41,250 nucleotides of DNA from Actinomycetota bacterium (GTDB lineage Bacteria; Actinomycetota; CADDZG01; JAHWKV01; JAOPZY01), in contig JAOPZY010000135.1 in NCBI GenBank assembly GCA_025963875.1, forward strand, positions 1-41,250. Direction: 5' to 3'. A program made the translations under genes and the position numbers. Positions 2,233-15,149 of the stretch are shown here, piece after piece; the first letter of the stretch is position 1, and each line of letters begins with the position of its first letter. The notes under the pieces were generated by a model. The model was not told the origin of the DNA, did not search any database, and saw only the letters and a list, made by a program, of their open reading frames with translations.

Positions 2233-2958
2233 ATGAAGAGCCGATCGAGCACCATCATCGGAGCGGGAGTCGCGTTGGCGATTCTCGGTGCGGCGCTGGT
2301 CTTCCTCTACGCCCACAGCCTGCAAGGGTCTGCGGGCGCCGCCACAGGGACCGACGTCGCCGCCTTCGTCGCCAAGACCGCCATCCCCAGCGGCACGAAA
2401 GCCGACTCCCTCACCACCTACGTGAAGGGCCAGGCAGTCCCTGCAGCAGCCCGGCCGGCCGACGCCCTCACGTCGCTGTCGCAGATCGCCAACCTCCAGA
2501 CGCTCCGCAACATCAGCGCCGGCGAGGTCGTCGCCGTCTCACAGTTCGGCACGGCCGGCGCCGCCACCGCCACGACGACCGCCTCGACCGACGGCCTCGC
2601 CATCCCCGCCGGCAAGAACGCCATCACCGTCACGGCGCCGGTGCCCCAGGCTGTGGCGGGCTACGTGTCGGCCGGCGACCTCGTCAACATCTACATGACC
2701 GGCAAGGGCGACCAGAGTGCCCGACTCCTGCTCAGCCACGTCGCCGTCCTCGCCGTCGTCCCGGCCAACACCCCCAAGATCGCCGCCGCCGCTCCGCCGA
2801 CGACCGATATCAACTTCACGCTCGCCCTCTCCCCCCAGGACGCCGAGAAGGTCATCTTCGCCCAGACCTACGAGGCCCTGTGGTACGGGCTGGTCCACCC
2901 CGGTGACGGCCCCGCAACCAGCGCCGGCCAGACCCTCAAGTCGCTCTTCGTGCCGTAG
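2233..2958 (+). CDS. cpaB: Flp pilus assembly protein CpaB/RcpC
   Basis: N-terminal TM helix, SAF-like VAKTAIPSGT...ISAGEVV, RcpC-like AVAGYVSAGDLVNI and TLALSPQDAEKV; RBS AAGGAAG; tad context. Confidence 0.88.
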   Translation: MKSRSSTIIGAGVALAILGAALVFLYAHSLQGSAGAATGTDVAAFVAKTAIPSGTKADSLTTYVKGQAVPAAARPADALTSLSQIANLQTLRNISAGEVVAVSQFGTAGAATATTTASTDGLAIPAGKNAITVTAPVPQAVAGYVSAGDLVNIYMTGKGDQSARLLLSHVAVLAVVPANTPKIAAAAPPTTDINFTLALSPQDAEKVIFAQTYEALWYGLVHPGDGPATSAGQTLKSLFVP

Positions 2959-2974
2959 GCGGGGGGTGATCGAT

Positions 2975-4978
2975 ATGAGCCAGGAGTACCTGAACAACCG
3001 CAGGGTGCCGCATTCGACGCTCTCGAACTACGACCTCGACCCCGAGGAGCAGGACCTCGATGCCGACGACGCCTTTGATGCACCCCTGAAGCTGCTCGTG
3101 GTGGACCGGCGAGGGAGCTTCAGCTCGGACATCGAGCGGGCTGCCCGCGCCCTGGAGTACGCCCCCACGGTCGTCACGGTCTCGCGTCTCACCGGGCTGC
3201 TGGAGGAAGTGCGCCTCGAGTCGCCGGACGTCGTCCTCGCAGCACCGGAGGAGATGACGGTCACCGGGCTCCGGCGCCTTGCACAGATCCACCGGGCGTC
3301 GCCGAAGACCGTGATCGTCCTGACGCAGGGAGCCACCCCCATCTCCATGACGGAAGCGGCGTCCTGTGGTGCGGGCGAGGTCATCGCCTACCCCGCGTCC
3401 ACCACCAGGCTCCGCAACGCCCTGCACCGCATCCTCGACACCGCAGAGGCGGTCCGGGGGGAGCGGGTCGTGATCCGGGAGGTCCCGACAGCCGCGCCCG
3501 AGCAGGCGCCGGCCTCCGCTGCACGGGCTCGGGTGAGCAACGCCATGGTCTTCACCGTGACCTCCCCCACGGGCGGCTGCGGCAAGACCTTCTTCGCCAC
3601 CAACCTTGCCGCCTACCTCGCCGGTGTGACGGGTGGCCGCGTCCTGCTGGTCGACCTCGACCTGCAGTTCGGCGAGGTGTCGCTCGCCCTCGGCCTGCGG
3701 CCCCAGCGGACCATCTCCGAGCTCATCAACGAAGAAGACATGGACGAGGCGCTCCCCGAATACCTCATGGAACACTCGTCGGGCTACCAGGTGCTGTCGG
3801 CACCCGCCGATCCCTTCGCAGCCGAGCTCGTCGGCCCCCGGGAGGCCACGCGGGTCCTCGAGTGTGCCCGGCGCCACTTCGACTACATCGTGGTGGACAC
3901 GCCCCCCTCGCTCAACGAGGTGGTCCTCGCCGCCTACGACCAGTCCCGCTACCTGGTGGTCATGGCGACGCTCGACGTGCCCTCGCTGCGCAACCTCCGG
4001 GTGTTCCTCGAGACCATCGAGCGCCTGAAGCTGCCGGCAGAGGACGTCTCCTGCGTCCTTAACAAGGCTGAGCCCGACAACGGCATCGACCTCCAGGAGC
4101 TGCTCCGGGTCTACCCTCGGGGCTTCGCAGCCGTGCTGCCGTACGCCAGGGAGGTCTCGCGCTCCCTGAACGCCGGCCAGCCGGTCCTGATCATCGAACC
4201 CAGGGCGGAGATCTCCCAGAAGCTGCTCGAGGCGGGGGCCAAGCTCGTGCCCGCCTCCCAAGTCATCAATCCCACGTGGGGGGCCCGGCCGGCTGGCAGG
4301 GTGTCCTGGTCGGCCCGGCGCAAGGAGCGCCAGGCACAGCTGGCGACGGCGACGCCGACCCACACCGCAGCGGCCGTGCACTACGAAGCACCCTCAGCTG
4401 CCGAGTGGCCGCAGGCCGGATCGTCAGTGGAGCCCCCCGCCGCCCGGGTCCCGGACGAAACGGTGCTGCGCGAGCCGTTCGTTGAAGACGAAGGGTCGTT
4501 GGTCCGGGCGCCGGGACACGGCCCCGCACGGGCAACGACCCAGAGGAGGCCGGCATCCGCAGCCGCTCCGAACGGCAACATGGCCGGAAGTCACTCCGGC
4601 CGCACCGATCGGGCCCCCGTCGCAGCCGGCCTGAGGGACAACGGGCTGACCCGTTTCCGGCTGAGGATAGGGGCGCGGCTCTGGGGGCCAGGCCTGGAGA
4701 CATCGCAGGCCCAGCAAGGGGCACTGCCGTCCCTCGCCACCCAGATGCAGGTGGGGCCTCCGTCTTTGTCCGGGCCCTTGAGCGATCCGGACCCCTCGTC
4801 CGAGCCATTGAAGAGGCCCTCGTCCTCATTCGGCCCCTTGAGTGGGCCCTTGGATGCGTCCTCGCCGCTGGTGTTCTCGGGGAGCCGTCAGGCGGCCTCG
4901 CCACCGCAACGGCCGCAGAGTCGCCGCGAGCGCCCAACTGAAACTCCGAAGACGAATCGGAAGGAGCCGAGACGATGA
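2975..4978 (+). CDS. cpaE: CpaE/TadZ pilus assembly ATPase (receiver-like domain + MinD/ParA domain + long low-complexity tail)
   Basis: Receiver-like LLVVD...PDVVL; Walker A variant SPTGGCGKT; VLLVDLDLQFG; DYIVVDTPP; VLNK. ATG 2975 chosen because the ORF-track start overlaps cpaB. Confidence 0.88.
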   Translation: MSQEYLNNRRVPHSTLSNYDLDPEEQDLDADDAFDAPLKLLVVDRRGSFSSDIERAARALEYAPTVVTVSRLTGLLEEVRLESPDVVLAAPEEMTVTGLRRLAQIHRASPKTVIVLTQGATPISMTEAASCGAGEVIAYPASTTRLRNALHRILDTAEAVRGERVVIREVPTAAPEQAPASAARARVSNAMVFTVTSPTGGCGKTFFATNLAAYLAGVTGGRVLLVDLDLQFGEVSLALGLRPQRTISELINEEDMDEALPEYLMEHSSGYQVLSAPADPFAAELVGPREATRVLECARRHFDYIVVDTPPSLNEVVLAAYDQSRYLVVMATLDVPSLRNLRVFLETIERLKLPAEDVSCVLNKAEPDNGIDLQELLRVYPRGFAAVLPYAREVSRSLNAGQPVLIIEPRAEISQKLLEAGAKLVPASQVINPTWGARPAGRVSWSARRKERQAQLATATPTHTAAAVHYEAPSAAEWPQAGSSVEPPAARVPDETVLREPFVEDEGSLVRAPGHGPARATTQRRPASAAAPNGNMAGSHSGRTDRAPVAAGLRDNGLTRFRLRIGARLWGPGLETSQAQQGALPSLATQMQVGPPSLSGPLSDPDPSSEPLKRPSSSFGPLSGPLDASSPLVFSGSRQAASPPQRPQSRRERPTETPKTNRKEPRR

Positions 4979-6477
4979 GCCTGTCAGAGCGTGCCGAACG
5001 GGTGGACCAGGAAAGCTCCCGTACCACCGGCACCCCGACGCCGCGCGCCAACACGAAGCGCGTCGTCACCAAGGAGGCAACGAGCTGGGGACAGATGAAG
5101 CGGCGGGTCCGCGACGTCCTCCTCGAGGTCCTCGGCCCCAAGCTGTCGCAGCGGATGAAAGCCGACGAGCTCGCCACGCTCGTGTCCAGCCACCTCGACG
5201 AGGCGCTGCGGAGCGCCGAGGTGTCGCTGCCGTCGTCCAAGCGGGCGCAGTTCGTCCGGGAGGTTGCGGCGGATCTCCTGGGCTACGGCCCGTTGGAGCC
5301 CCTGCTCCACGACCCGGACGTCACCGAGATCATGTGCAACGGCATCGACGAGATCTACGTCGAGCGCCACGGCAAGATCGTGCGGACCGACGCCAGCTTC
5401 ATCGACGAGAGCCAGTTCCGCCAGGTCATCGAGAAGATCGTCGCCCGCGTGGGCCGGCGCATCGACGAGTCGTCGCCCATGGTCGACGCCCGGCTGCCCG
5501 ACGGCTCCCGAGTCAACGCCGTCATCCCGCCCGTGTCGGTCCACGGACCGGTGCTCACCATCCGGCGCTTCCCCGAGAAGGCCTTCGAGGTCAAGGACCT
5601 CATCGCCTTCGGGTCGCTCACCGTCGACACCGCGGTGTTCCTCGAGGCCTGCGTGCGGGCCAAGCTGAACATCCTCGTCACCGGGGGGACCGGCACCGGC
5701 AAGACGACCATCCTGAACGTGATCTCGAGCTTCATCCCTCTCGACGACCGCATCATCACCATCGAGGACGCCGCTGAGCTCCGGCTCAACCAGCCCCACG
5801 TCGTGACGCTCGAGTCCCGGCCCCCGAACGTCGAGGGGGCGGGCGAGATCAAGATCCGGGACCTGCTCCGCAACGCCCTGCGGATGCGGCCCGACCGCAT
5901 CATCGTCGGCGAGGTCCGTGGGCCGGAGGCGCTCGACATGCTCCAGGCCATGAACACCGGTCATGAGGGATCGCTGACCACGCTGCACTGCAACTCGCCC
6001 CGGGACGCCCTCTCCCGCCTCGAGACCCTGGTCCTGATGGCGGGCTACGACCTGCCGGTCCGAGCCATCCGCACCCAGATCGCCTCGGCCATCGACCTCA
6101 TCGTCCACCTCGATCGCTTCGGGGACGGGTCCCGCCGCACGACCGCGATCACCGAGATCCAGGGCATGGAAAGCGACATCATCACCATCCAGGACGTCTT
6201 CTCCTTCGTCTTCACCACCGGCGGCAAGGAATCGGCAAAGATCACCGGCAAGCTCCAGGCAACGGGCCTTCGTCCGAAGGTCATCGAGCGGATCCGGGCG
6301 GCGGGGCTCGACCTGCCCGCCAAGCTGTTCCAGCCCGGCGGCCTCACGCCGGTCCCCCCGCAGCGGACCGAGAGCTGGAGCACGGCGAACCTCGGGGAAG
6401 CGGCGGGTGGCCAGGAGACGGCCGACCGGGCCAAGATTCTGGCGAACCTGGCTCGCCGCAGAGGAGGGTCGCGGTGA
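4975..6477 (+). CDS. cpaF: CpaF/TadA pilus assembly ATPase
   Basis: GYGPLEPLL, DARLPDGSRVN, Walker A GGTGTGKTT, IEDAAEL, ALRMRPDRIIVGEVRG, AMNTGHEG. Confidence 0.95.
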   Translation: MSLSERAERVDQESSRTTGTPTPRANTKRVVTKEATSWGQMKRRVRDVLLEVLGPKLSQRMKADELATLVSSHLDEALRSAEVSLPSSKRAQFVREVAADLLGYGPLEPLLHDPDVTEIMCNGIDEIYVERHGKIVRTDASFIDESQFRQVIEKIVARVGRRIDESSPMVDARLPDGSRVNAVIPPVSVHGPVLTIRRFPEKAFEVKDLIAFGSLTVDTAVFLEACVRAKLNILVTGGTGTGKTTILNVISSFIPLDDRIITIEDAAELRLNQPHVVTLESRPPNVEGAGEIKIRDLLRNALRMRPDRIIVGEVRGPEALDMLQAMNTGHEGSLTTLHCNSPRDALSRLETLVLMAGYDLPVRAIRTQIASAIDLIVHLDRFGDGSRRTTAITEIQGMESDIITIQDVFSFVFTTGGKESAKITGKLQATGLRPKVIERIRAAGLDLPAKLFQPGGLTPVPPQRTESWSTANLGEAAGGQETADRAKILANLARRRGGSR

Positions 6478-7424
6478 TCGTCGTTCTCGCAGCCCTCCTC
6501 GTCGCCGGTGGTGTCGTCGCCATCGCCTGGGGCGTCGCGTCCGGGGAGAAGGCAGGCCGTCAGTCCCTGGTCCAGCTCCTCGACCTGGAGCGGGTCGACC
6601 CGACACAGTCGCCGCAGACGCTCGTTGCCCTGATGGAGAGGGCGGGCGCCCTGGCGGACCGAGCCTTCAAGGGCACTGCCACCTCCTCCAAGCTCCAGGC
6701 GTCGCTGGCCTCCGCCGGCGTGAAGCTGCGCCCGGGCGAGTTCGGTGTGGTGTCCGCCGGCGCCGGTGTCCTGGGGGCGCTCGTCTCGTTGCTGTTCGTC
6801 CCGCTCGTGATCTCGGTTGCCATCCTGGTCGGCCTCCCCCTCGCCATCTACTTCTGGATGATCCGCAAGGGCAAGAAACGGCGGATCGCTCTCGAGAACC
6901 AGCTCCCGACGGTGCTCCAGCTCCTCGCCGGGTCGCTCGACTCGGGCGCCTCGATGCTGCACGCCATGGAGATCGTGGCCCAGGAGGGCAATGCCCCCCT
7001 GGCCGACGAGTTCGCCCGGGTGGTGATCGAGACGCAGGTGGGCCGGCCGATGCTGGACTCGCTCCAGGCAATGGCAGACCGCTGCGCCTCGCAGGACCTC
7101 GACTGGACGGTGGAGGCCATCCGCATCCAGTACACCAGCGGCGGCAGCCTCTCCGAGACACTCCGCACCCTCGCCGAGTTCATGCGGGCACGGGTGGAGA
7201 TCCGTGCAGAGGTGCGGGCCCTGTCGGCAGAGGCGCGGCTGTCCGGCAAGGTCCTCACCGGCCTTCCGCTGCTCGTCGGTGGCTTCCTCATGCTGTTCCG
7301 GCCCGACTACGTGGCGCCGCTCTACCAGACGGGGACCGGCAAGATGATGCTCGTCGCCGCCGGCTTCGGAATGCTCACCGGGACGATGTGGATGCAGCGG
7401 ATCATCAAGAAGGTGGAGGTGTAG
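6474..7424 (+). CDS. tadB: TadB (T2SS-F family) platform protein
   Basis: QLPTVLQLLAGSLDSG, EFARVVIETQVG, GGSLSETL, ALSAEARLSG; GTGA overlap with cpaF. Confidence 0.9.
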   Translation: MIVVLAALLVAGGVVAIAWGVASGEKAGRQSLVQLLDLERVDPTQSPQTLVALMERAGALADRAFKGTATSSKLQASLASAGVKLRPGEFGVVSAGAGVLGALVSLLFVPLVISVAILVGLPLAIYFWMIRKGKKRRIALENQLPTVLQLLAGSLDSGASMLHAMEIVAQEGNAPLADEFARVVIETQVGRPMLDSLQAMADRCASQDLDWTVEAIRIQYTSGGSLSETLRTLAEFMRARVEIRAEVRALSAEARLSGKVLTGLPLLVGGFLMLFRPDYVAPLYQTGTGKMMLVAAGFGMLTGTMWMQRIIKKVEV

Positions 7425-7426
7425 TG

Positions 7427-8359
7427 GTGAGCATGATCCTGTGGTTTGGTCCGGCGACGGTCGGGGTCGGGTTAGGTTTCGTGGCAGTGGGAGTGGCCGG
7501 TCGCTCCTCCGACCGCCGGTCCAGCGCCGCGGCGCTGGAGTCCATCGTCGGCGAGGGGCTGGACAGCAGGGAGGCGGAACTCTCCGCTCCCCTGTCGCTC
7601 CGGCTCCTCGGGCCGGTCGGTCGGTCGCTCACCAGGATCGCCCGGGCGGTGACGCCCAGCACGATGGTCGCCCGGCTTCGGCAGAACACGTCGCTGGCAG
7701 GCCTCGGAGACCTCGGGGTCGAAGGTGCCCTGGCGCTGAAGGCCGCCGGTGCCGCCCTGCTGGCCGTCATCTTCCCGCTCCTGCTGGCACTCCTCGGCGT
7801 GGGCTTCGGCAACGTCATCCTGTTGGGACTCTTCGGGGCGGCCATCGGCTTCATGCTGCCCGACGTCTTCATCGCCGGCAAGGGCAAGAAGCGCCAGGCG
7901 GAGATCCGCAGGGCGCTGCCCGAGACCCTCGATCTGCTGGCGATCGCCGTCGGCGCCGGCATGGGCCTGGAGGCCGCTATCGAACTGGTCATCCAGCGCC
8001 TCCCGGGACCGTTGGGCCAGGAGTTCCACCGGATCCTGCAGGAGCTGTCGCTCGGCGTTTCCCGCCGGGAGGCGTTCGGCAACCTCCGGACACGGACCGA
8101 GGTCGAGGAACTGTCGACGTTCGCCCTGATCCTGACCCAGGCGGACGCCCTCGGCACCCCGCTGTCCGTCGTCCTCAAGAGCCAGGCGGCGGAGATGCGG
8201 ATGCTGCGCCGGCAGCGGGCGAGGGAGCAGGGGGCCAAGACCCCCGTTGCCCTGCTGTTCCCACTGCTGCTCGGAATCTTCCCCGCGCTGATGCTGATCG
8301 TCATGGGCCCCGCAATCATCTCGATCATGAAGGCCTTCGGCGCTGGGCGGGGCGTGTAG
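7427..8359 (+). CDS. tadC: TadC (T2SS-F family) platform protein
   Basis: LPETLDLLAIAVGAGMGLE, QADALGTPL, LLFPLLLGIFPALMLIVMGPA; GGAGG RBS before GTG 7427 (ATG 7433 is an alternative). Confidence 0.9.
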   Translation: MSMILWFGPATVGVGLGFVAVGVAGRSSDRRSSAAALESIVGEGLDSREAELSAPLSLRLLGPVGRSLTRIARAVTPSTMVARLRQNTSLAGLGDLGVEGALALKAAGAALLAVIFPLLLALLGVGFGNVILLGLFGAAIGFMLPDVFIAGKGKKRQAEIRRALPETLDLLAIAVGAGMGLEAAIELVIQRLPGPLGQEFHRILQELSLGVSRREAFGNLRTRTEVEELSTFALILTQADALGTPLSVVLKSQAAEMRMLRRQRAREQGAKTPVALLFPLLLGIFPALMLIVMGPAIISIMKAFGAGRGV

Positions 8360-8428
8360 TCGCAAGCTCGTCTGCCCAACCGAACAACCCCATCCCGCAC
8401 GCTCTGAAAAAGGAAAGGAAGTGTCGTT

Positions 8429-8650
8429 TTGCTCGCGATCCTGCTCTTCATCAAGGACCGGTTTGCAGTTCTTCGACCCGTGGGTGAGCGGGGGGCGGCC
8501 GCCGTGGAGTACGGCCTGCTCGTCGCCCTGATCGCGGTCGCCATCATCGGCGCGGTGTTCCTGTTGGGCGGGAGGATCAACAACACCTACACGTGCGTCG
8601 GCAACAGCATGCCTACCGGCTCCTCGGCATCACCGAGCGCAAGCTGCTAA
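8429..8650 (+). CDS. flp: Second Flp family type IVb pilin
   Basis: ERG|AAAVEYGLLVALIAVAII motif; RBS AAGGAAAGGAAG; TTG start. Confidence 0.92.
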   Translation: MLAILLFIKDRFAVLRPVGERGAAAVEYGLLVALIAVAIIGAVFLLGGRINNTYTCVGNSMPTGSSASPSASC

Positions 8651-10537: not shown

Positions 10538-11785
10538 TCACGACGTGTGGCGCTGGGCCTTGCCGGGGTCGGGGACTTTCCGGAACTGGAGGTAGATCAG
10601 GACGTCGTAGAGGATCTTCACGCCCCCGGCGGCGAAGAAGGGGCTGCCAAGGGCGACGTGGCTCATGAGCGCACCGCCAACCGAAGGCGCGACGGGGCGG
10701 GTGAGGTACCGGGCCGTGTTCGTGTAGGCGGCGGCGGCCACCCGTTCCTCGGGGTCGACCATCGTCATCACGTAGGCCTGGCGGGCGGGGACGTCCATCT
10801 GCGAGATGGCGAAGCGGGCCATCAGGATGGCGACGGCGATGGGGAGGTTGGGTGCCAGGGGCACCGCCATCAGCGCCAGGTTGGACGGCAGGTGGCTGAA
10901 GACCATCGTGTTCAGCAGCCCGATCCTGGCGGCGATGGGGCTGGCCAGCATCGAGGACCCCGCCTGGAGGATCCCGGCCACGGAGAAGACCACCGCCAGC
11001 AGGCCGGTGGAGGCCCCCAACGCCCTGCCGAACCAGAACACCAGGAACGTCTGGGTGATGAAGCCGCCCCCGAAGGAGTCGAGAGCGAACAACACGGCCA
11101 GCTTGCGCACGGTTGCCCGCGAGCGCACGAGGGGCGCCGGCTTGCCGGGCAGCGTCGAGGGGACCGGGCCGACCTCGACGGCCGGGGAGAGGCGAGCCGC
11201 CAGCACCCGGCAGACGATCCCGATCACCGGGAACATCAGCAGCCACCACTGGTTGGCGGGCACGCCGGAGATGGCCCTCCGGAGCAGGGCGGGCAGGCCG
11301 GCGGCGAGCGAGCCCACCGACCCGGCGGCGAAGGCCACGGCGTTGTAGCGGCCGAAGGCCCGCACCCTCCGGCTGGCACGGACCCCGCCGATCATGGCCT
11401 GCTCGAGGGAGGTGATCGGCCCGGACTCGTTGGGGTCGGGCGAGAGGGTCCCGCTGAGCGCCGCGAGCAGCAGGGCCGGGAACCAGCGAGTCAGGGCGAA
11501 CACCGCCCCCGCGACACCCATCAGCGCGAGCAGCGAGCCGTACAGCCTCCGCCGGCCCACCCGCTCGCCCCACCGGCCGACGGCGACGGAGGTGAGGGCC
11601 ATCCCGGCGAGCATGGCGGTGAGGATTGCCCCCACCTGGAGGTCGGAGAGCTTGGCGGCCGCCAGCACGACGCCGAGCAGCACGCTGGCGAAGCCGTAGG
11701 CGAAGGCCCGGAGTCCCTGGATGGTGAGGATGATGCGGATGTCGCGGGGGAGCCCCGCCGCCTGCAGCTCGTCAGCGTCTGCCAT
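10538..11785 (-). CDS. MFS transporter
   Basis: About 12 hydrophobic segments; motif A-like GRWGERVGRRR; DSFGGGF; SQMDVPARQAY. Confidence 0.9.
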   Translation of the reverse strand: MADADELQAAGLPRDIRIILTIQGLRAFAYGFASVLLGVVLAAAKLSDLQVGAILTAMLAGMALTSVAVGRWGERVGRRRLYGSLLALMGVAGAVFALTRWFPALLLAALSGTLSPDPNESGPITSLEQAMIGGVRASRRVRAFGRYNAVAFAAGSVGSLAAGLPALLRRAISGVPANQWWLLMFPVIGIVCRVLAARLSPAVEVGPVPSTLPGKPAPLVRSRATVRKLAVLFALDSFGGGFITQTFLVFWFGRALGASTGLLAVVFSVAGILQAGSSMLASPIAARIGLLNTMVFSHLPSNLALMAVPLAPNLPIAVAILMARFAISQMDVPARQAYVMTMVDPEERVAAAAYTNTARYLTRPVAPSVGGALMSHVALGSPFFAAGGVKILYDVLIYLQFRKVPDPGKAQRHTS

Positions 11786-11816
11786 CCCGGGAGCCTATCC
11801 GCCGCGGGGTTTTTAT

Positions 11817-11837
11817 CCGGCGCCTTGAGGGGCGCCT
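11817..11837 (+). repeat. 21-bp palindromic dispersed repeat, copy 2 (between divergent MFS and relaxase-like promoters)
   Basis: Identical CCGGCGCCTTGAGGGGCGCCT preceded by TTTTAT. Confidence 0.85.
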
Positions 11838-11857
11838 GGAGGGACGAGAATGGCCCG

Positions 11858-12496
11858 ATGGACGCCCGACTCGGCCAGCGGGATCTCGAGGCCCTCCGGT
11901 GGGTCGGCGAGCAGTACGCCTGCCGGCTGGACCAGCTCCAGATCCTGCTGGGGCGCCTCGGCGACCGGGGCGCACTTTCGGCATCGGCAGCTCGCTCCGT
12001 CGTCAGCCGCTGGGAGACGCTCGGCATGGCCTCCCGGGCCAGCTTCATCGCCGGCGAGCCGTCGTGGGTCTGGCTGACCCGCCGCGGCCTCCGGCAGGCG
12101 GGCCTGGCGTTCCGGGTCGTGGAGCCCAAGGCCTGGACGCTGCCCCACACCGCAGCCGTGAACCGGGTGCGCCTGTTCGTCGAACCGCGCCGTCCCGGCG
12201 CCCGCTGGCGTCCCGAGCGGGAGCTCCGGGCTGCCGGCGGTGCCGCAGGTCCCGGCGGGCCGGTGCCCGACGCAGAGATCCACGACGCGGGCGGTAACGT
12301 CATCGCCGTGGAGGTCGAGCTGTCCCCGAAGTCGCCCGCCCGCCGCCGGCGGGTCATGCAGGCGCTGGTGGCCCGCTACGACTCGCTCTGGTACTTCGCC
12401 TCCGCCGACTGCTGGGTGGCCCTCCACGACGCGGTCTGCCACGTACCGCCACAGCTTGCCGACCTCGTCCGCATCTACGCCCTGGAGGACCTCTAG
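11858..12496 (+). CDS. Replication-relaxation (Replic_Relax/MOB_C-like) protein: wHTH + PD-(D/E)xK nuclease
   Basis: RDLEALRWVGEQY wHTH start, WVWLTRRGL, LPHTAAVN, W.PEREL, catalytic-type PDAE...IAVEVELSPK. ATG 11858 lies 6 nt after GAGAAT. It is the 3' part of ORF 10547..12496. Confidence 0.72.
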   Translation: MDARLGQRDLEALRWVGEQYACRLDQLQILLGRLGDRGALSASAARSVVSRWETLGMASRASFIAGEPSWVWLTRRGLRQAGLAFRVVEPKAWTLPHTAAVNRVRLFVEPRRPGARWRPERELRAAGGAAGPGGPVPDAEIHDAGGNVIAVEVELSPKSPARRRRVMQALVARYDSLWYFASADCWVALHDAVCHVPPQLADLVRIYALEDL

Positions 12497-13782
12497 TGCA
12501 AGCCCACGTCGGGGTCGACGGCCTCCTGGGCGCCCTGGTCTCGGGCGACCTCTTCGAATGGGGCCGCCGGGACGCGGGGCGGCTGTGGCTCGCCTATCCC
12601 GAGGCGGACCTGTCCCGGCACGGCGTGGTGGTGGGGGCGGCGGGGTCGGGCAAGACCGAGACGCTGCTGCGGCTCTCGTACCTGGCGGCGAAGGTCTACG
12701 GCTGGCACGTCGTCTTCCTCGACGCCAAGGGCGACCCCGCCACCCGGGACCGCTTCGTTGCGGCCATGCTGCACGCCGGCGTCGATGCGGCAGCGATACG
12801 GGCCTTCCCCGCCCAGCCGTACGATGCCTGGCGCGGCGACGCCAGGGCGCTGGTCAACCGCCTCATGGAGGTCTCGGACTTCAGCGAGCCCTACTACCGG
12901 GCGATGGCGCTGCGGGTCCTGGACCTGGCGACGTCGGCGCCTCCCGGGCCGCCGCGGTCGTCCGCCGACCTGCTCGGCCGCCTACGGAAGCCGGCGCTGC
13001 GGATGGCCTACCGGGGGCGGCCCGAGGCGACCGAGATCGACGACCTCGCCGAGCGGGACGTGGCGGGCGTCGCCAACCGGTACCGGGCCTTCTTCGGGGC
13101 GCTGGGCGGCTCCCTCGACGGGACCTGGGCGTTCGAGGACCCGGCAGCCTGCTACGTCCTGCTCGAGGGCCTGGCGCTGAAGGCCGAGGCGGCGCGGCTC
13201 GGCCGCTTCTTCCTCGAGGACTTCGCCCACTACGCGGGCGTCCGCAAGGAGGCGGCGCGTCGGGTGCTGCTGGTGGTGGACGAGTTCTCCGCGCTGGAGT
13301 CGACGGCCGACGCCGCCCATCTCTTCGAGCGTCTGCGGTCGTTCGGTGCGGCGGTGATCGTCTCGGCACAGGGCTACGCCGGACTCGGTGTGGCGGGGGA
13401 CCGCATCCTCGACGCCGCCCAGACGCTCGTGCTCCACCGCTGCGCGGAGCCGGAGCGCCTCATCGCCCGGGCTGGGACGGTGCCCCGCGTGGAGCACACC
13501 CGGTACCTCCCCGGGCGGGACGCCGCCGGAGGCCCTGCCGGGAGGGAGGGGGCCGTGACCCGGCGGGAGGGATGGCGGGTCCGGCCGAACGACGTCCGCC
13601 AGCTTCCCGTGGGCGAGGCCGTCGTCGTCTCGGGCGGCAAGGCGGCCCGGGTGCGCGTGGAGCGGCTCCTCCCGCCCGAGGAGCTCCTGGCCGCCGCGGC
13701 CGGGATCGCCAGCCGCGCCGGCACGTCCCGGGCGGCGCCGGTCTTCCACCCGTCTCCGCCGCCGCAGGTTCCGGGCCTGTAG
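12496..13782 (+). CDS. VirD4/TraD-like type IV coupling protein ATPase (FtsK-HerA superfamily), no N-terminal TM anchor
   Basis: RHGVVVGAAGSGKT Walker A, FLDAKGD, LLVVDEFS Walker B, ERLRSFG...SAQ, VRPNDVRQLPVGEA C-terminal motif; 1-nt overlap with the upstream gene. Confidence 0.78.
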   Translation: MQAHVGVDGLLGALVSGDLFEWGRRDAGRLWLAYPEADLSRHGVVVGAAGSGKTETLLRLSYLAAKVYGWHVVFLDAKGDPATRDRFVAAMLHAGVDAAAIRAFPAQPYDAWRGDARALVNRLMEVSDFSEPYYRAMALRVLDLATSAPPGPPRSSADLLGRLRKPALRMAYRGRPEATEIDDLAERDVAGVANRYRAFFGALGGSLDGTWAFEDPAACYVLLEGLALKAEAARLGRFFLEDFAHYAGVRKEAARRVLLVVDEFSALESTADAAHLFERLRSFGAAVIVSAQGYAGLGVAGDRILDAAQTLVLHRCAEPERLIARAGTVPRVEHTRYLPGRDAAGGPAGREGAVTRREGWRVRPNDVRQLPVGEAVVVSGGKAARVRVERLLPPEELLAAAAGIASRAGTSRAAPVFHPSPPPQVPGL

Positions 13783-13786
13783 CCCG

Positions 13787-14683
13787 ATGACACCGGCCGG
13801 GATCGGGCTCGTCGCCGCCTCGATCCTCCTGGACCTACCCTCCGCAATCGCCCGGCTGTTCCTGACCGCGGTCATCGCCGGGCTGGCGGGCGCGCTCGAC
13901 TGGCGGGCCGACCTCGTCGTCTTCCTCGTAGCCTTCGGCCCGTACCTGCGAAGCATCGCCGCCCTCGTCTTCCCCCTTCCGGCTGGGGCATTCCTCCGGC
14001 AGGCGGCGGGGGCGCGGAAGCCGTCGGAACGCGAACGCGCGGCCATCGGGAATGCGTTCTCGCTGCTACCCGGCGGCGCCGCCCCGGCGAGCGTCCTCGT
14101 GATCGACGGTCCGGACGAGAACGCCTGGGTGCTCGGGTGCACGCTCTTCGTCGAGCGGGGCCTCTTCGAGAGCCCCCACCTGGTGGCGGTGCTGGCCCAC
14201 GAGGCGGGCCACCTGGCCGCCGGGGACGGGCGCGTGGCCCTGGCGGCCTGGTGGCTCCCCGTTCGCTCCGCGGCTTGGGTCGCGGCCCGCCTGATCGGCA
14301 GCAGGACCGGCGGTCTGCCCCAGGCGGGCAAGACCCTCCCGCAGCCCCGGGCCGCCGGTGCGGGCGCCGGGATCCTCCCCGACCCCCGGTTCCGCGTCCT
14401 CGGCGGCCTGCTCCGGCTCCCCGGCATCGCCGCAGGCACCGTGGCGCTACTCTTCGCCGGCGGCCTGTTCCCGATGCTCCTGCGCCAGGTGTGGGCCGCC
14501 TACCGCCGCAGCCGCGAGTTCGCGGCGGACGCCTTCGCGGCGTCGGCGGGCCATGGGCCGGCGCTCGTCGAGGCCCTCGCCGAGTGGCAGGTGCTCGACG
14601 TGGCCACGCCGTGGTGGCTCCGGCTCAGCCATCCCTACGTCGAGCAGCGGATCGACCAACTTCAGCGGCTGCAAGTAGAGTAG
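13787..14683 (+). CDS. M48 family (HtpX-like) membrane zinc metalloprotease
   Basis: ENAW, VLAHEAGH (HExxH), REFAADAFA (ExxAD), SHP...RI; TM segments. Confidence 0.82.
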   Translation: MTPAGIGLVAASILLDLPSAIARLFLTAVIAGLAGALDWRADLVVFLVAFGPYLRSIAALVFPLPAGAFLRQAAGARKPSERERAAIGNAFSLLPGGAAPASVLVIDGPDENAWVLGCTLFVERGLFESPHLVAVLAHEAGHLAAGDGRVALAAWWLPVRSAAWVAARLIGSRTGGLPQAGKTLPQPRAAGAGAGILPDPRFRVLGGLLRLPGIAAGTVALLFAGGLFPMLLRQVWAAYRRSREFAADAFAASAGHGPALVEALAEWQVLDVATPWWLRLSHPYVEQRIDQLQRLQVE

Positions 14684-14687
14684 GCCC

Positions 14688-15149
14688 ATGTTCGCACTCC
14701 TCCTGAGCGTGCACATCCTCGCGGCGATCATCGGGTTGGGGCCGTCGTTCTCGTTCGGTTTCCTCGGGGTCATGTCCGAGAAGCAGCCCGCCGCCGCCCG
14801 GGCCCTGCAGGAGACCATCCTCCTGATCTCGACCCGCATGGTCATCCCCCTCGTCGTGATCCTCGGCCTCAGCGGTGTGCTGCTGGTCGGCAACACCCAC
14901 GTCAACCTCAGCAAGAACCCCTGGCTGGGGGCCGGAATCGTCCTCTACGTCCTCGTGCTGGCGACGGCGATCTTCTACCAGGTACCCACCCAGAAGAAGA
15001 TCCTGGCGCTGCTCGGGCCAACCGGCGGGATGGACCAACCCGGGGTGCGCAAGCTCGCCACCGGCCAGCGGGTCGTCGGCATCTCCATGGGGCTGGCCGT
15101 TGTCGTCACCGCGGTCCTGATGATCTGGAAGCCCGGCGCCGGGTCGTAG
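14688..15149 (+). CDS. DUF2269-like 4-TM membrane protein
   Basis: LSVHILAAIIGLG...PWL...LMIWKP pattern. Confidence 0.75.
   Translation: MFALLLSVHILAAIIGLGPSFSFGFLGVMSEKQPAAARALQETILLISTRMVIPLVVILGLSGVLLVGNTHVNLSKNPWLGAGIVLYVLVLATAIFYQVPTQKKILALLGPTGGMDQPGVRKLATGQRVVGISMGLAVVVTAVLMIWKPGAGS

Follow-up and report, generated by a model that had tools for sequence, protein, structure and literature searches.

Why would a chromosome keep the core of a DNA-mobilisation system when nothing around it looks mobile? This question is raised by three genes, here called g1, g2 and g3 and together the triad, in a stretch of 41 250 nt (the window) that is contig C135 of a metagenome-assembled actinobacterial genome of 3.84 Mb (273 contigs, 94.6 % complete), which we refer to as the own genome or G000. 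g1 encodes a winged-helix protein with a PD-(D/E)xK-type domain, g2 an ATPase related to type IV coupling proteins (T4CPs) and g3 an M48 zinc metalloprotease. A preliminary description of the window, made from its letters alone, had offered a domesticated chromosomal DNA-mobilisation module and a defence system as alternatives. We favour the former, as the triad derives from mobilisable islands with integrases and is here integrase-less, syntenic and under purifying selection. It is probably a domesticated module, namely the core of an integrative mobilisable element (IME) minus the integrase and cargo, fixed at one chromosomal site under purifying selection.

Among 40 relatives searched, strong matches to g2 came from four of the five members of the window's family and from one genome outside it (G034, another family), where g2 is anchored and its context looks mobile. 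g3 is present in the same four family genomes. The total of five includes the unpublished genome G003; without it, each of the four family genomes has the whole triad. The gene order in the family is ABC transporter, (MFS), g1, g2, g3, (DUF2269), UDP-glucose dehydrogenase, malate dehydrogenase. The run of genes from the ABC transporter through the triad to UDP-glucose dehydrogenase is syntenic in G001 and G005, and partly so on the short contigs of G002 and G004; the synteny extends over four genera. Across genera, the proteins encoded at this site share 65-88 % (g1), 74-87 % (g2) and 56-80 % (g3) identity. In the four family genomes that hold it, the triad is present as a single copy at the same site, with no stop codons or frameshifts. 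Ratios of nonsynonymous to synonymous substitution (dN/dS) were 0.13-0.37 for g1, 0.15-0.25 for g2 and 0.15-0.42 for g3, a constraint like that on six flanking genes (0.07-0.40). Given the synteny in the absence of an integrase and the low dN/dS, the triad in this family is neither mobile nor decaying; it is fixed and kept by selection.

The window itself agrees with this. No integrase, resolvase, transposase or type IV secretion system (T4SS) family was matched among the window ORFs scanned against Pfam, and there are no tRNA genes in the 41-kb window. The earlier statement that T4SS genes are lacking holds for the window; it fails for the genome, where a VirB4-type locus lies on another contig (see below). 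That description had also named the findings that would tell against it: homologues confined to complete mobile elements together with a triad that is not conserved, or dN/dS near 1. The triad is conserved also beyond the family and dN/dS is far below 1. However, the homologues outside the family do sit in integrative elements.

These mobile relatives were found in a scan at one genome per species, which returned 16 loci with g1 relatives. g2 adjoins g1 in 14 of the 16, and in six of the 12 non-family loci with g2 (L015, L018, L020, L021, L023 and L028) a Phage_integrase (tyrosine recombinase) gene follows g2 directly. The g1-g2-integrase islands abut tRNA genes, a tRNA-Gly/tRNA-Pro pair in three genomes and tRNA-His or tRNA-Met in others. 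Their defence cargo varies (GmrSD, Dcm and MTaX1; McrB-like, Vsr, Dcm and a ThsB-type TIR; Mrr; or HNH and T5orf172). The distribution of g1 is patchy, with 17/401 Actinomycetota genomes and 13/249 genera represented and up to four copies per genome. Integrase adjacency, tRNA flanks, variable cargo and patchiness together are the signature of an IME, with the relaxase, T4CP and integrase genes as its backbone.

The complete triad also occurs outside the family, and is older than it. G189 is a closed genome of 3.5 Mb from another family; in it, an integrase gene adjoins g1, followed by an anchorless 384-aa g2 (no transmembrane, TM, segment) and a 257-aa M48 protease, and then by genes for an Eco57I-type methylase, T5orf172/RAMA, SIR2-STAND and a KAP NTPase. 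G324, from a further family, carries g1-g2-M48, then a 173-aa gene, then an integrase gene. Two metagenome triads with an anchorless g2 have the order g1-g2-M48-integrase (L092) and integrase, then g1-g2-M48 (L100). The corresponding g1 and g2 proteins of the window, G189 and G324 triads are 34 % and 53 % identical, respectively, and the M48 proteases are 30-31 % identical over 287-298 aa including the membrane part (E about 1e-25). Six further metagenome loci (L081, L082, L084-L087) are close copies of the window's g2-g3 arrangement. We think it likely that actinobacterial IMEs carried the ancestral core, in which a candidate relaxase of the MobC/Replic_Relax type was joined by a coupling ATPase of the element itself and a membrane protease of family M48.

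Several of these loci deserve mention in their own right. L020, L023 and L028 share the same tRNA-Gly(tcc)/tRNA-Pro(ggg) pair and the same g1-g2-integrase end, and differ in their defence cargo (ThsB-TIR, 8xMP, Dcm, Vsr and McrB-like; Mrr; or GmrSD, Dcm and MTaX1). The site resembles a hotspot for defence islands, all of them served by a single IME backbone. In G034 (contig C76; L024/L011), g1 and an anchored g2 are followed by genes for a 211-aa protein, a 689-aa DUF559-like plus SF2-helicase protein and a 759-aa protein; neither an integrase nor an M48 gene comes after the pair. This is another cargo or backbone variant. On metagenome contigs (L112/L113), one element has g1-g2, two more g1-like paralogues and then M48, and a fourth g1-like fragment precedes an integrase gene, a local expansion of the winged-helix nuclease gene.

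The three proteins were then assigned as follows. g1 has an N-terminal MarR-like winged helix-turn-helix (wHTH) and a C-terminal PD-(D/E)xK-type domain. When 28 homologues are aligned, E152 and E154 do not vary and H97, D138 and K158 hardly do; these residues lie behind an N-terminal helix-turn-helix (HTH) that reads RDLxxLRWVGEQYA. Nine of the 28 homologues match Replic_Relax weakly, and two triad orthologues, those of G324 (29.9 bits) and L092 (33.7 bits), lie above the Pfam Replic_Relax cut-off of 25.3. The nearest clusters in a protein atlas are named 'Replication-relaxation family protein' (0.97). In the AlphaFold model (pLDDT 94.2), the C-terminal domain has the order alpha-beta-beta-beta-alpha-beta, and the wHTH resembles MarR-type structures in a structure search (Z 9-10); PDB sequence profiles gave only MarR wHTH matches, with E about 0.4. 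Judged by sequence, g1 is a distant, putative relaxase of the Replic_Relax/MobC type, with membership at the superfamily level only. As the gene sits within a longer open frame, its reading frame was compared with the overlapping antisense ORF. G+C at the three codon positions (GC1/2/3) is 0.78/0.54/0.91 in the g1 frame vs 0.91/0.57/0.76 in the antisense ORF, and a homologue search returned 343 homologues of g1; the g1 frame was judged to be the coding one because of its GC3 and these homologues.

g2 is the soluble nucleotide-binding plus all-alpha part of a TrwB/VirD4-like T4CP. Its Walker A (residue 47; G47..K53) and Walker B (D262/E263) motifs are invariant in 37 sequences, and it matches Pfam TrwB_AAD_bind with 31 bits (cut-off 20.5) over residues 249-297 only. 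T4SS-DNA_transf (PF02534) was matched neither by g2 nor by any other protein of the own genome. Searched with Foldseek, the g2 model (pLDDT 89.5) has TrwBdeltaN70 (1e9s) as its top match (E 3e-13, TM score 0.63), with Cag-beta, HerA, DndH-C and VirB4 ranked after it. Among PDB sequence profiles, IcmO/DotL was matched at 2.7e-7 and TrwB only at E 0.27, and comparison with PHROGs gave P-loop-level matches only. A hydropathy scan found no TM segment in g2, and two to three in relatives of 569-616 aa; outside the window's own genus, g2 measures 550-616 aa and these helices are N-terminal. What g2 lacks is the N-terminal transmembrane domain of roughly 150-190 aa seen in most relatives, and in all four family genomes with g2 the match starts at profile position about 149-162 of 590. 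In a maximum likelihood tree of 37 homologues, the short forms of the family make up one clade (100/100), and a separate short clade of 387-aa g2 proteins (the G189 type) is equally well supported. The two separate short clades force at least two length changes. The idea that the N-terminal TM region of g3 is the detached membrane domain of g2 was rejected, as hhalign of the two alignments gave a probability of 0.5 %.

The polytopic protein g3 is a zinc metalloprotease of family M48, and its subfamily occurs next to T4CP genes of actinobacterial integrative elements. It matches Pfam Peptidase_M48 at 2e-12 (47.8 bits, cut-off 20.3), has three predicted TM segments, and the zinc-site residues H138-E139-x-x-H142 and E244/D248 (E..AD) are invariant in 27 sequences. 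As the HtpX equivalog models score far below their cut-offs, g3 is not HtpX itself. A word-based homologue search returned 43 matches, 42 of them at 53 % identity or more, all from the same clade. The conclusion from this search that g3 is lineage-specific was rejected, because the distant M48 proteases of other triads surfaced through their genomic context.

A metagenome scan with the M48 alignment returned 64 loci, of which 12 distinct ones with an M48 identity of at least 30 % and at least 2 kb of upstream sequence were used to assess linkage. A T4CP gene lies no more than 2.6 kb upstream of the M48 gene in 8 of the 12, the exceptions being L096, L099, L109 and L111. In four of the eight (L094, L095, L105 and L108) the T4CP is of the canonical VirD4 type (PF02534, 555-597 aa; on the divergent strand), with an HTH gene of 121-127 aa in between; L094 and L108 also carry an integrase gene, L094 a TrwC relaxase gene and L108 an HTH_17 excisionase-like gene. 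In L107, a 112-aa HTH_IclR-like gene is in the position before M48. The arrangement shared by the four VirD4-type loci suggests an undescribed HTH plus M48 regulatory pair in actinobacterial integrative and conjugative elements (ICEs). Together, the triads with integrases and the linkage to T4CP genes place this M48 subfamily in the transfer/integration backbone of actinobacterial integrative elements. No mention of M48 proteases in the context of coupling proteins or integrative elements was found in the literature searched.

The own genome also has a candidate partner channel. Its one VirB4-type gene (AAA_10, 4.4e-58) is on contig C105 (1-7145, L029), within a channel locus of the Gram-positive T4SS type that has the order lgt, a two-TM protein with a LysM-like end, a TcpC-like protein, an 85-aa two-TM protein, TcpE and VirB4. 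In G005 (contig C4, 7212-13516, L040), VirB4 is followed by a 508-aa protein with at least six TM segments. The locus is syntenic beside lgt in G000 and G005 (dN/dS 0.12-0.47). The AAA_10 VirB4 family is present in 5/5 family genomes plus G000 (4/4 without G003), and was not found in any of the 35 other relatives searched. The VirB4 locus includes neither a coupling protein nor a relaxase gene, and g2 is the only T4CP that searches of the own genome turned up: PF02534 had no match, and a search with g2 returned nothing but g2. It is suggestive that the triad and the VirB4 locus are complementary.

Continued DNA transfer through this fixed channel of the family is our leading hypothesis for what the triad may do. 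By homology, g1 would bind DNA via its winged helix and cut or nick it via the PD-(D/E)xK site, and g2 would act as a TrwB-like hexameric, NTP-driven motor that receives g1 together with its DNA. g3 would lie in the membrane, its active site facing the cytoplasm, and might tether and/or proteolytically gate the anchorless g2, or might cleave the HTH protein g1. The likely exit route would be the family's own locus for VirB4, TcpC, TcpE and the polytopic membrane protein. Going further, the two fixed loci, the triad by Tad and the VirB4/TcpC/TcpE/VirB6-like channel by lgt, might form a host-owned, integrase-free machine for conjugation-like export or exchange of DNA, in which the M48 protease has taken over the docking or gating role of the lost T4CP membrane domain, and the M48 subfamily might more widely be an undescribed T4CP regulator in actinobacterial ICEs and IMEs. 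This is a tentative proposal, and one that we regard as possible rather than probable.

Several observations weigh against these readings, and concern each of the proteins and the channel. g1 matches no Pfam family at E<=1, and NCBIfam MobC_subf (NF041423) only at a sub-threshold level (9.4e-8, 31.6 bits, cut-off 200). The earlier assignments of the three proteins hold at the superfamily level, and g1 falls below the MobC and Replic_Relax cut-offs. Replic_Relax (PF13814) was not found in the own genome, in a search that also matched in no control genome. In whole-model searches (Foldseek and a wide search), the C-terminal domain of g1 found no match to a solved nuclease fold, the lists being filled by wHTH proteins; PspGI and NucS appeared in the whole-g1 structure search only at E about 0.01. 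Upstream of g1 there is no inverted repeat of 8 nt or more, and hence no repeat like that of an origin of transfer (oriT), in the window, L014, L010, L080 or L092. Inverted repeats are present at this position in L012, L079 (G189) and L100, those of G189 and L100 being 22-30 nt. The missing repeat in the fixed forms is weak evidence that mobilisation in cis from the spot upstream of g1 has ceased.

For g2, the difficulty is docking. PMC7431656 describes engineered T4CPs without the membrane domain (TrwBdeltaN70, MobBdeltaTMD and PcfCdeltaN103) as transfer-inactive, and anchorless g2 may for this reason fail to dock to a channel; the same source reports that TcpA with a membrane-domain deletion is still functional, at reduced frequency. 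Every anchorless g2 with readable downstream DNA precedes an M48 gene (the window's family, G189, G324, L092 and L100), and M48 is absent at twelve loci with an anchored g2 (L015, L017, L018, L020, L021, L023, L024, L026, L027, L028, L074 and L076). However, the rule that g2 is anchorless if, and only if, M48 lies downstream (three of three anchorless lineages vs none of 12 anchored loci) was abandoned. It is broken by L093, which has g1, a 606-aa g2 with an N-terminal extension and M48, and by the VirD4-type loci, where relatives of M48 accompany fully anchored T4CPs. As the rule fails in this direction, the protease is not merely a substitute anchor. Contact between g2 and g3 receives weak support from complex prediction, where the scores of 0.43, 0.34 and 0.43 (best of three controls, 0.00) fall in a range that the tool calls more often wrong than right. 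The runs share at least 65 % of contacts, with a partner pLDDT of 70 or more. Of 157 solved complexes, 116 passed the mark used, as did 2 of 215 mismatched pairs; at scores of 0.60 or less, it was passed by only 18 of the 157, plus both of these mismatches. Finally, the link between the triad and the VirB4 locus is one of co-occurrence within a single clade of related genomes, and in the unpublished G003 the VirB4 locus is present and the triad absent.

Four other explanations were weighed against a domesticated mobilisation module. The triad might have been exapted for regulation, with no movement of DNA: g1 would be a wHTH repressor or DNA-binding protein, controlled by g3 upon an envelope signal, with g2 as an ATP-dependent adaptor, and the targets could be the neighbouring Tad pilus and ABC genes or the VirB4 locus. 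The HTH gene that precedes M48 in the ICE-like loci L094, L095, L105 and L108 (and in L107) fits this, as does the absence of a separate HTH gene from the triad, where g1 supplies a MarR-like wHTH; so do the adjacency of Tad, ABC and triad genes, which is conserved between genera, and the lack of an oriT-like repeat upstream of g1 in the fixed forms. However, the PD-(D/E)xK residues of g1 and the Walker motifs of g2 are invariant or nearly so, and a pure repressor with its adaptor would not need them. The target sites are candidates only, and the analogy with BlaR1 and ImmA is one of architecture alone. We consider regulatory exaptation unlikely. A role in anti-phage or anti-plasmid defence, with g1 as nuclease, g2 as a HerA/T4CP-like translocase and g3 as protease effector or sensor, was the other suggestion of the preliminary description, and we find little in its favour. 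g2 does match mad8, a PADLOC model for the MADS system, with its residues 39-389 aligned to positions 26-298 of the 314 in the profile (1.1e-13), and MADS contains a MAD7-MAD8 ATPase-nuclease module, as described in PMC13662399; g2 also resembles HerA and DndH-C structurally, and the mobile relatives sit in islands rich in defence genes. However, detection of MADS, as set out in bioRxiv 10.1101/2023.03.30.534895, requires MAD6, MAD7 and MAD8, all mandatory, and of this trio only MAD8 was matched; no PADLOC model was matched by g1, g3 or the gene after g3. In structure, g2 is closest to a conjugative T4CP, with HerA ranked lower, and its matches to HerA models are below threshold (PADLOC E 0.0058-0.085; Pfam HerA_C 19.2 bits, cut-off 22, P-loop only). 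g1-g2(-M48) is always at the integrase end of islands whose cargo varies, which is the pattern of a backbone and not of cargo; M48 relatives accompany TrwC relaxase and VirD4-type T4CP genes; and defence systems, unlike the triad, are rarely syntenic across genera. Defence is therefore an improbable function.

The two remaining explanations concern the state of the locus rather than its function. That it is a still-mobile element, with its integrase outside the window or mobilised in trans, would be in keeping with the mobility of this module type elsewhere and with the higher G+C over 11-15 kb (0.72-0.755), and is nevertheless very improbable, given the same ABC/UDP-glucose dehydrogenase insertion site across genera at 65-88 % protein identity, the single copy per genome, and a 41-kb window without a tRNA gene, integrase or transposase. 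That integrase, cargo and T4CP membrane domain are all gone might be read as decay into a functionless remnant. We regard this as extremely improbable, as the dN/dS of 0.13-0.42 is indistinguishable from that of flanking housekeeping genes, the four family genomes have no stops or frameshifts and the catalytic residues are all kept.

The features of the window are listed in Table 1. The main structural claims made earlier for the triad were borne out: the three genes are tightly coupled, with a 1-nt overlap between g1 and g2 and a 4-nt gap between g2 and g3; the catalytic motifs (PD...ExExxxK, Walker A/B and HExxH+ExxAD) are present and conserved in the homologue alignments; and the hexamers GAGAAT and TAGAGT are found at the 6-nt spacings reported. 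GAGAAT is -10-like and is kept in all three genomes of the genus (G000, G001 and G002), where the start codon of g1 is ATG or GTG. We could not uphold the view that the triad is a stand-alone, self-contained transcript. A scan for consensus sigma-70 promoters found no promoter-like sites, there is no terminator between the genes, and the one terminator-like site is inside g2 (0.6 expected by chance). The genes downstream of g3 on the same strand follow as tightly, with a DUF2269 gene after 4 nt, a UDP-glucose-dehydrogenase-like gene after 9 nt and a methyltransferase gene with a 4-nt overlap.

Table 1. Coordinates of the triad, its flanking signals and the Tad/Flp pilus cluster in the window
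Feature	Position	Strand	Details
g1	11858..12496	+	212 aa, ATG start; sits within longer open frame
g2	12496..13782	+	428 aa, GTG start
g3	13787..14683	+	298 aa, ATG start
Intergenic region between divergent MFS gene (- strand) and g1	11786..11857	.	72 bp; GAGAAT and two GGCGCC hexamers around TTGAGG
GAGAAT	11846-11851		6 nt 5' of the g1 ATG
TAGAGT	14676-14681		6 nt 5' of the ATG of the gene after g3
CAP-domain protein, Tad/Flp pilus cluster	459-1391
Flp pilin, Tad/Flp pilus cluster	1527-1868
TadZ/CpaE-like ATPase, Tad/Flp pilus cluster	2717-4978		with receiver domain
TadA, Tad/Flp pilus cluster	4975-6477
TadB, Tad/Flp pilus cluster	6474-7424
Probable TadC paralogue, Tad/Flp pilus cluster	7441-8487

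The promoter region between the divergent MFS gene and g1 also contains a GGCGCC-TTGAGG-GGCGCC motif (window 11826-11838; L012 3557-3611). Its GGCGCC-TTGAGG-GGCG part is kept in G000 and G001; the motif is doubled in G001 and absent from G002, and it is a candidate operator for the winged helix of g1. Further upstream, the Tad/Flp cluster lies directly before the triad region in G000 and G005, and only an ABC-2 exporter and the MFS gene stand between the cluster and the triad in the window, an adjacency that is the same in G005. The G+C content of the window is ~70 %. It reaches 0.72-0.755 over 11001-15000 (MFS gene, triad and DUF2269 gene) and is about 0.65-0.71 in most other 1-kb bins, which may be a trace of foreign origin or may reflect proteins rich in Ala, Arg and Gly. 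Twenty sequencing runs matched the region; all are DNA from soil or other metagenomes, and no RNA run was among them.

Genes for conjugation are commonly taken as a sign of mobile DNA; here they have been kept by a host over a long evolutionary time, together with a separately fixed channel. Should the unit still act on DNA, an abundant and uncultured soil lineage would have a chromosomal system for gene exchange or DNA release. Coupling proteins without a membrane domain have been kept repeatedly in nature, though laboratory truncations show the domain to be essential, and a specific M48 subfamily travels with coupling-protein genes in actinobacterial integrative elements. For annotation, such a triad on its own is not enough to count as a mobile element.

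Protease-controlled regulation of mobile elements and resistance operons is known from ImmA/ImmR of ICEBs1 and from BlaR1/BlaI. ImmA is soluble and belongs to the M78 type, and BlaR1 is an M56 sensor that carries a penicillin-binding domain. The triad resembles these in that an HExxH zinc metalloprotease is encoded beside an HTH protein in or near a transfer-integration module, and differs from them in that g3 is an M48 protease with no recognisable sensor domain. With TrwBdeltaN70 of R388 (1e9s, 1e9r and 1gki), g2 shares a whole-length match at 16-17 % identity, with the Walker A/B NTP-binding domain and the all-alpha domain. However, TrwBdeltaN70 is an engineered truncation, whereas g2 is a natural, selected anchorless form.

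A chromosomally fixed, conjugation-type machine is found in the gonococcal genetic island, whose T4SS secretes chromosomal DNA, as described in PMC6736028. As in that island, relaxase, T4CP and T4SS genes would here serve the host chromosome rather than a self-transmissible element. Unlike in the island, the DNA-processing genes and the channel genes here occupy two separate fixed sites, the T4CP has no anchor and the unit includes an M48 protease.

The closest known systems are those that pair a MobC relaxase with a coupling protein of their own. Section 3.3 of PMC5704250 notes that few mobilisable plasmids and putative IMEs have a VirD4 coupling protein of their own, and that those which do encode a MobC relaxase as well. 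The T4CP MobB of CloDF13, whose membrane domain comprises three helices and about 150 aa, is one example (PMC7431656). Like CloDF13 MobC/MobB and the putative Streptococcus IMEs with MobC and VirD4, as these sources describe them, the triad has a small, non-HUH, restriction-endonuclease-like relaxase candidate beside its own T4CP; the anchored relatives of g2, like MobB, have a three-helix N-terminal membrane domain of about 150 aa; and outside the window's family the module sits, as do MOB_C IMEs, in integrative mobilisable islands. It departs from the CloDF13 pair in that g1 is below the family cut-off and g2 lacks the membrane domain, the deletion of which, according to PMC7431656, inactivates MobB. 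Other differences from MOB_C modules are the third conserved gene, for the M48 protease, and, at this locus, the lack of an integrase, a replicon or any sign of mobility. To call the triad the best candidate for an undescribed system in the window was an overstatement, as the pairing of MobC with its own T4CP is, from PMC5704250, already a known kind. The triad is probably a domesticated derivative of that MobC-plus-T4CP mobilisation module, and the M48 protease is the addition.

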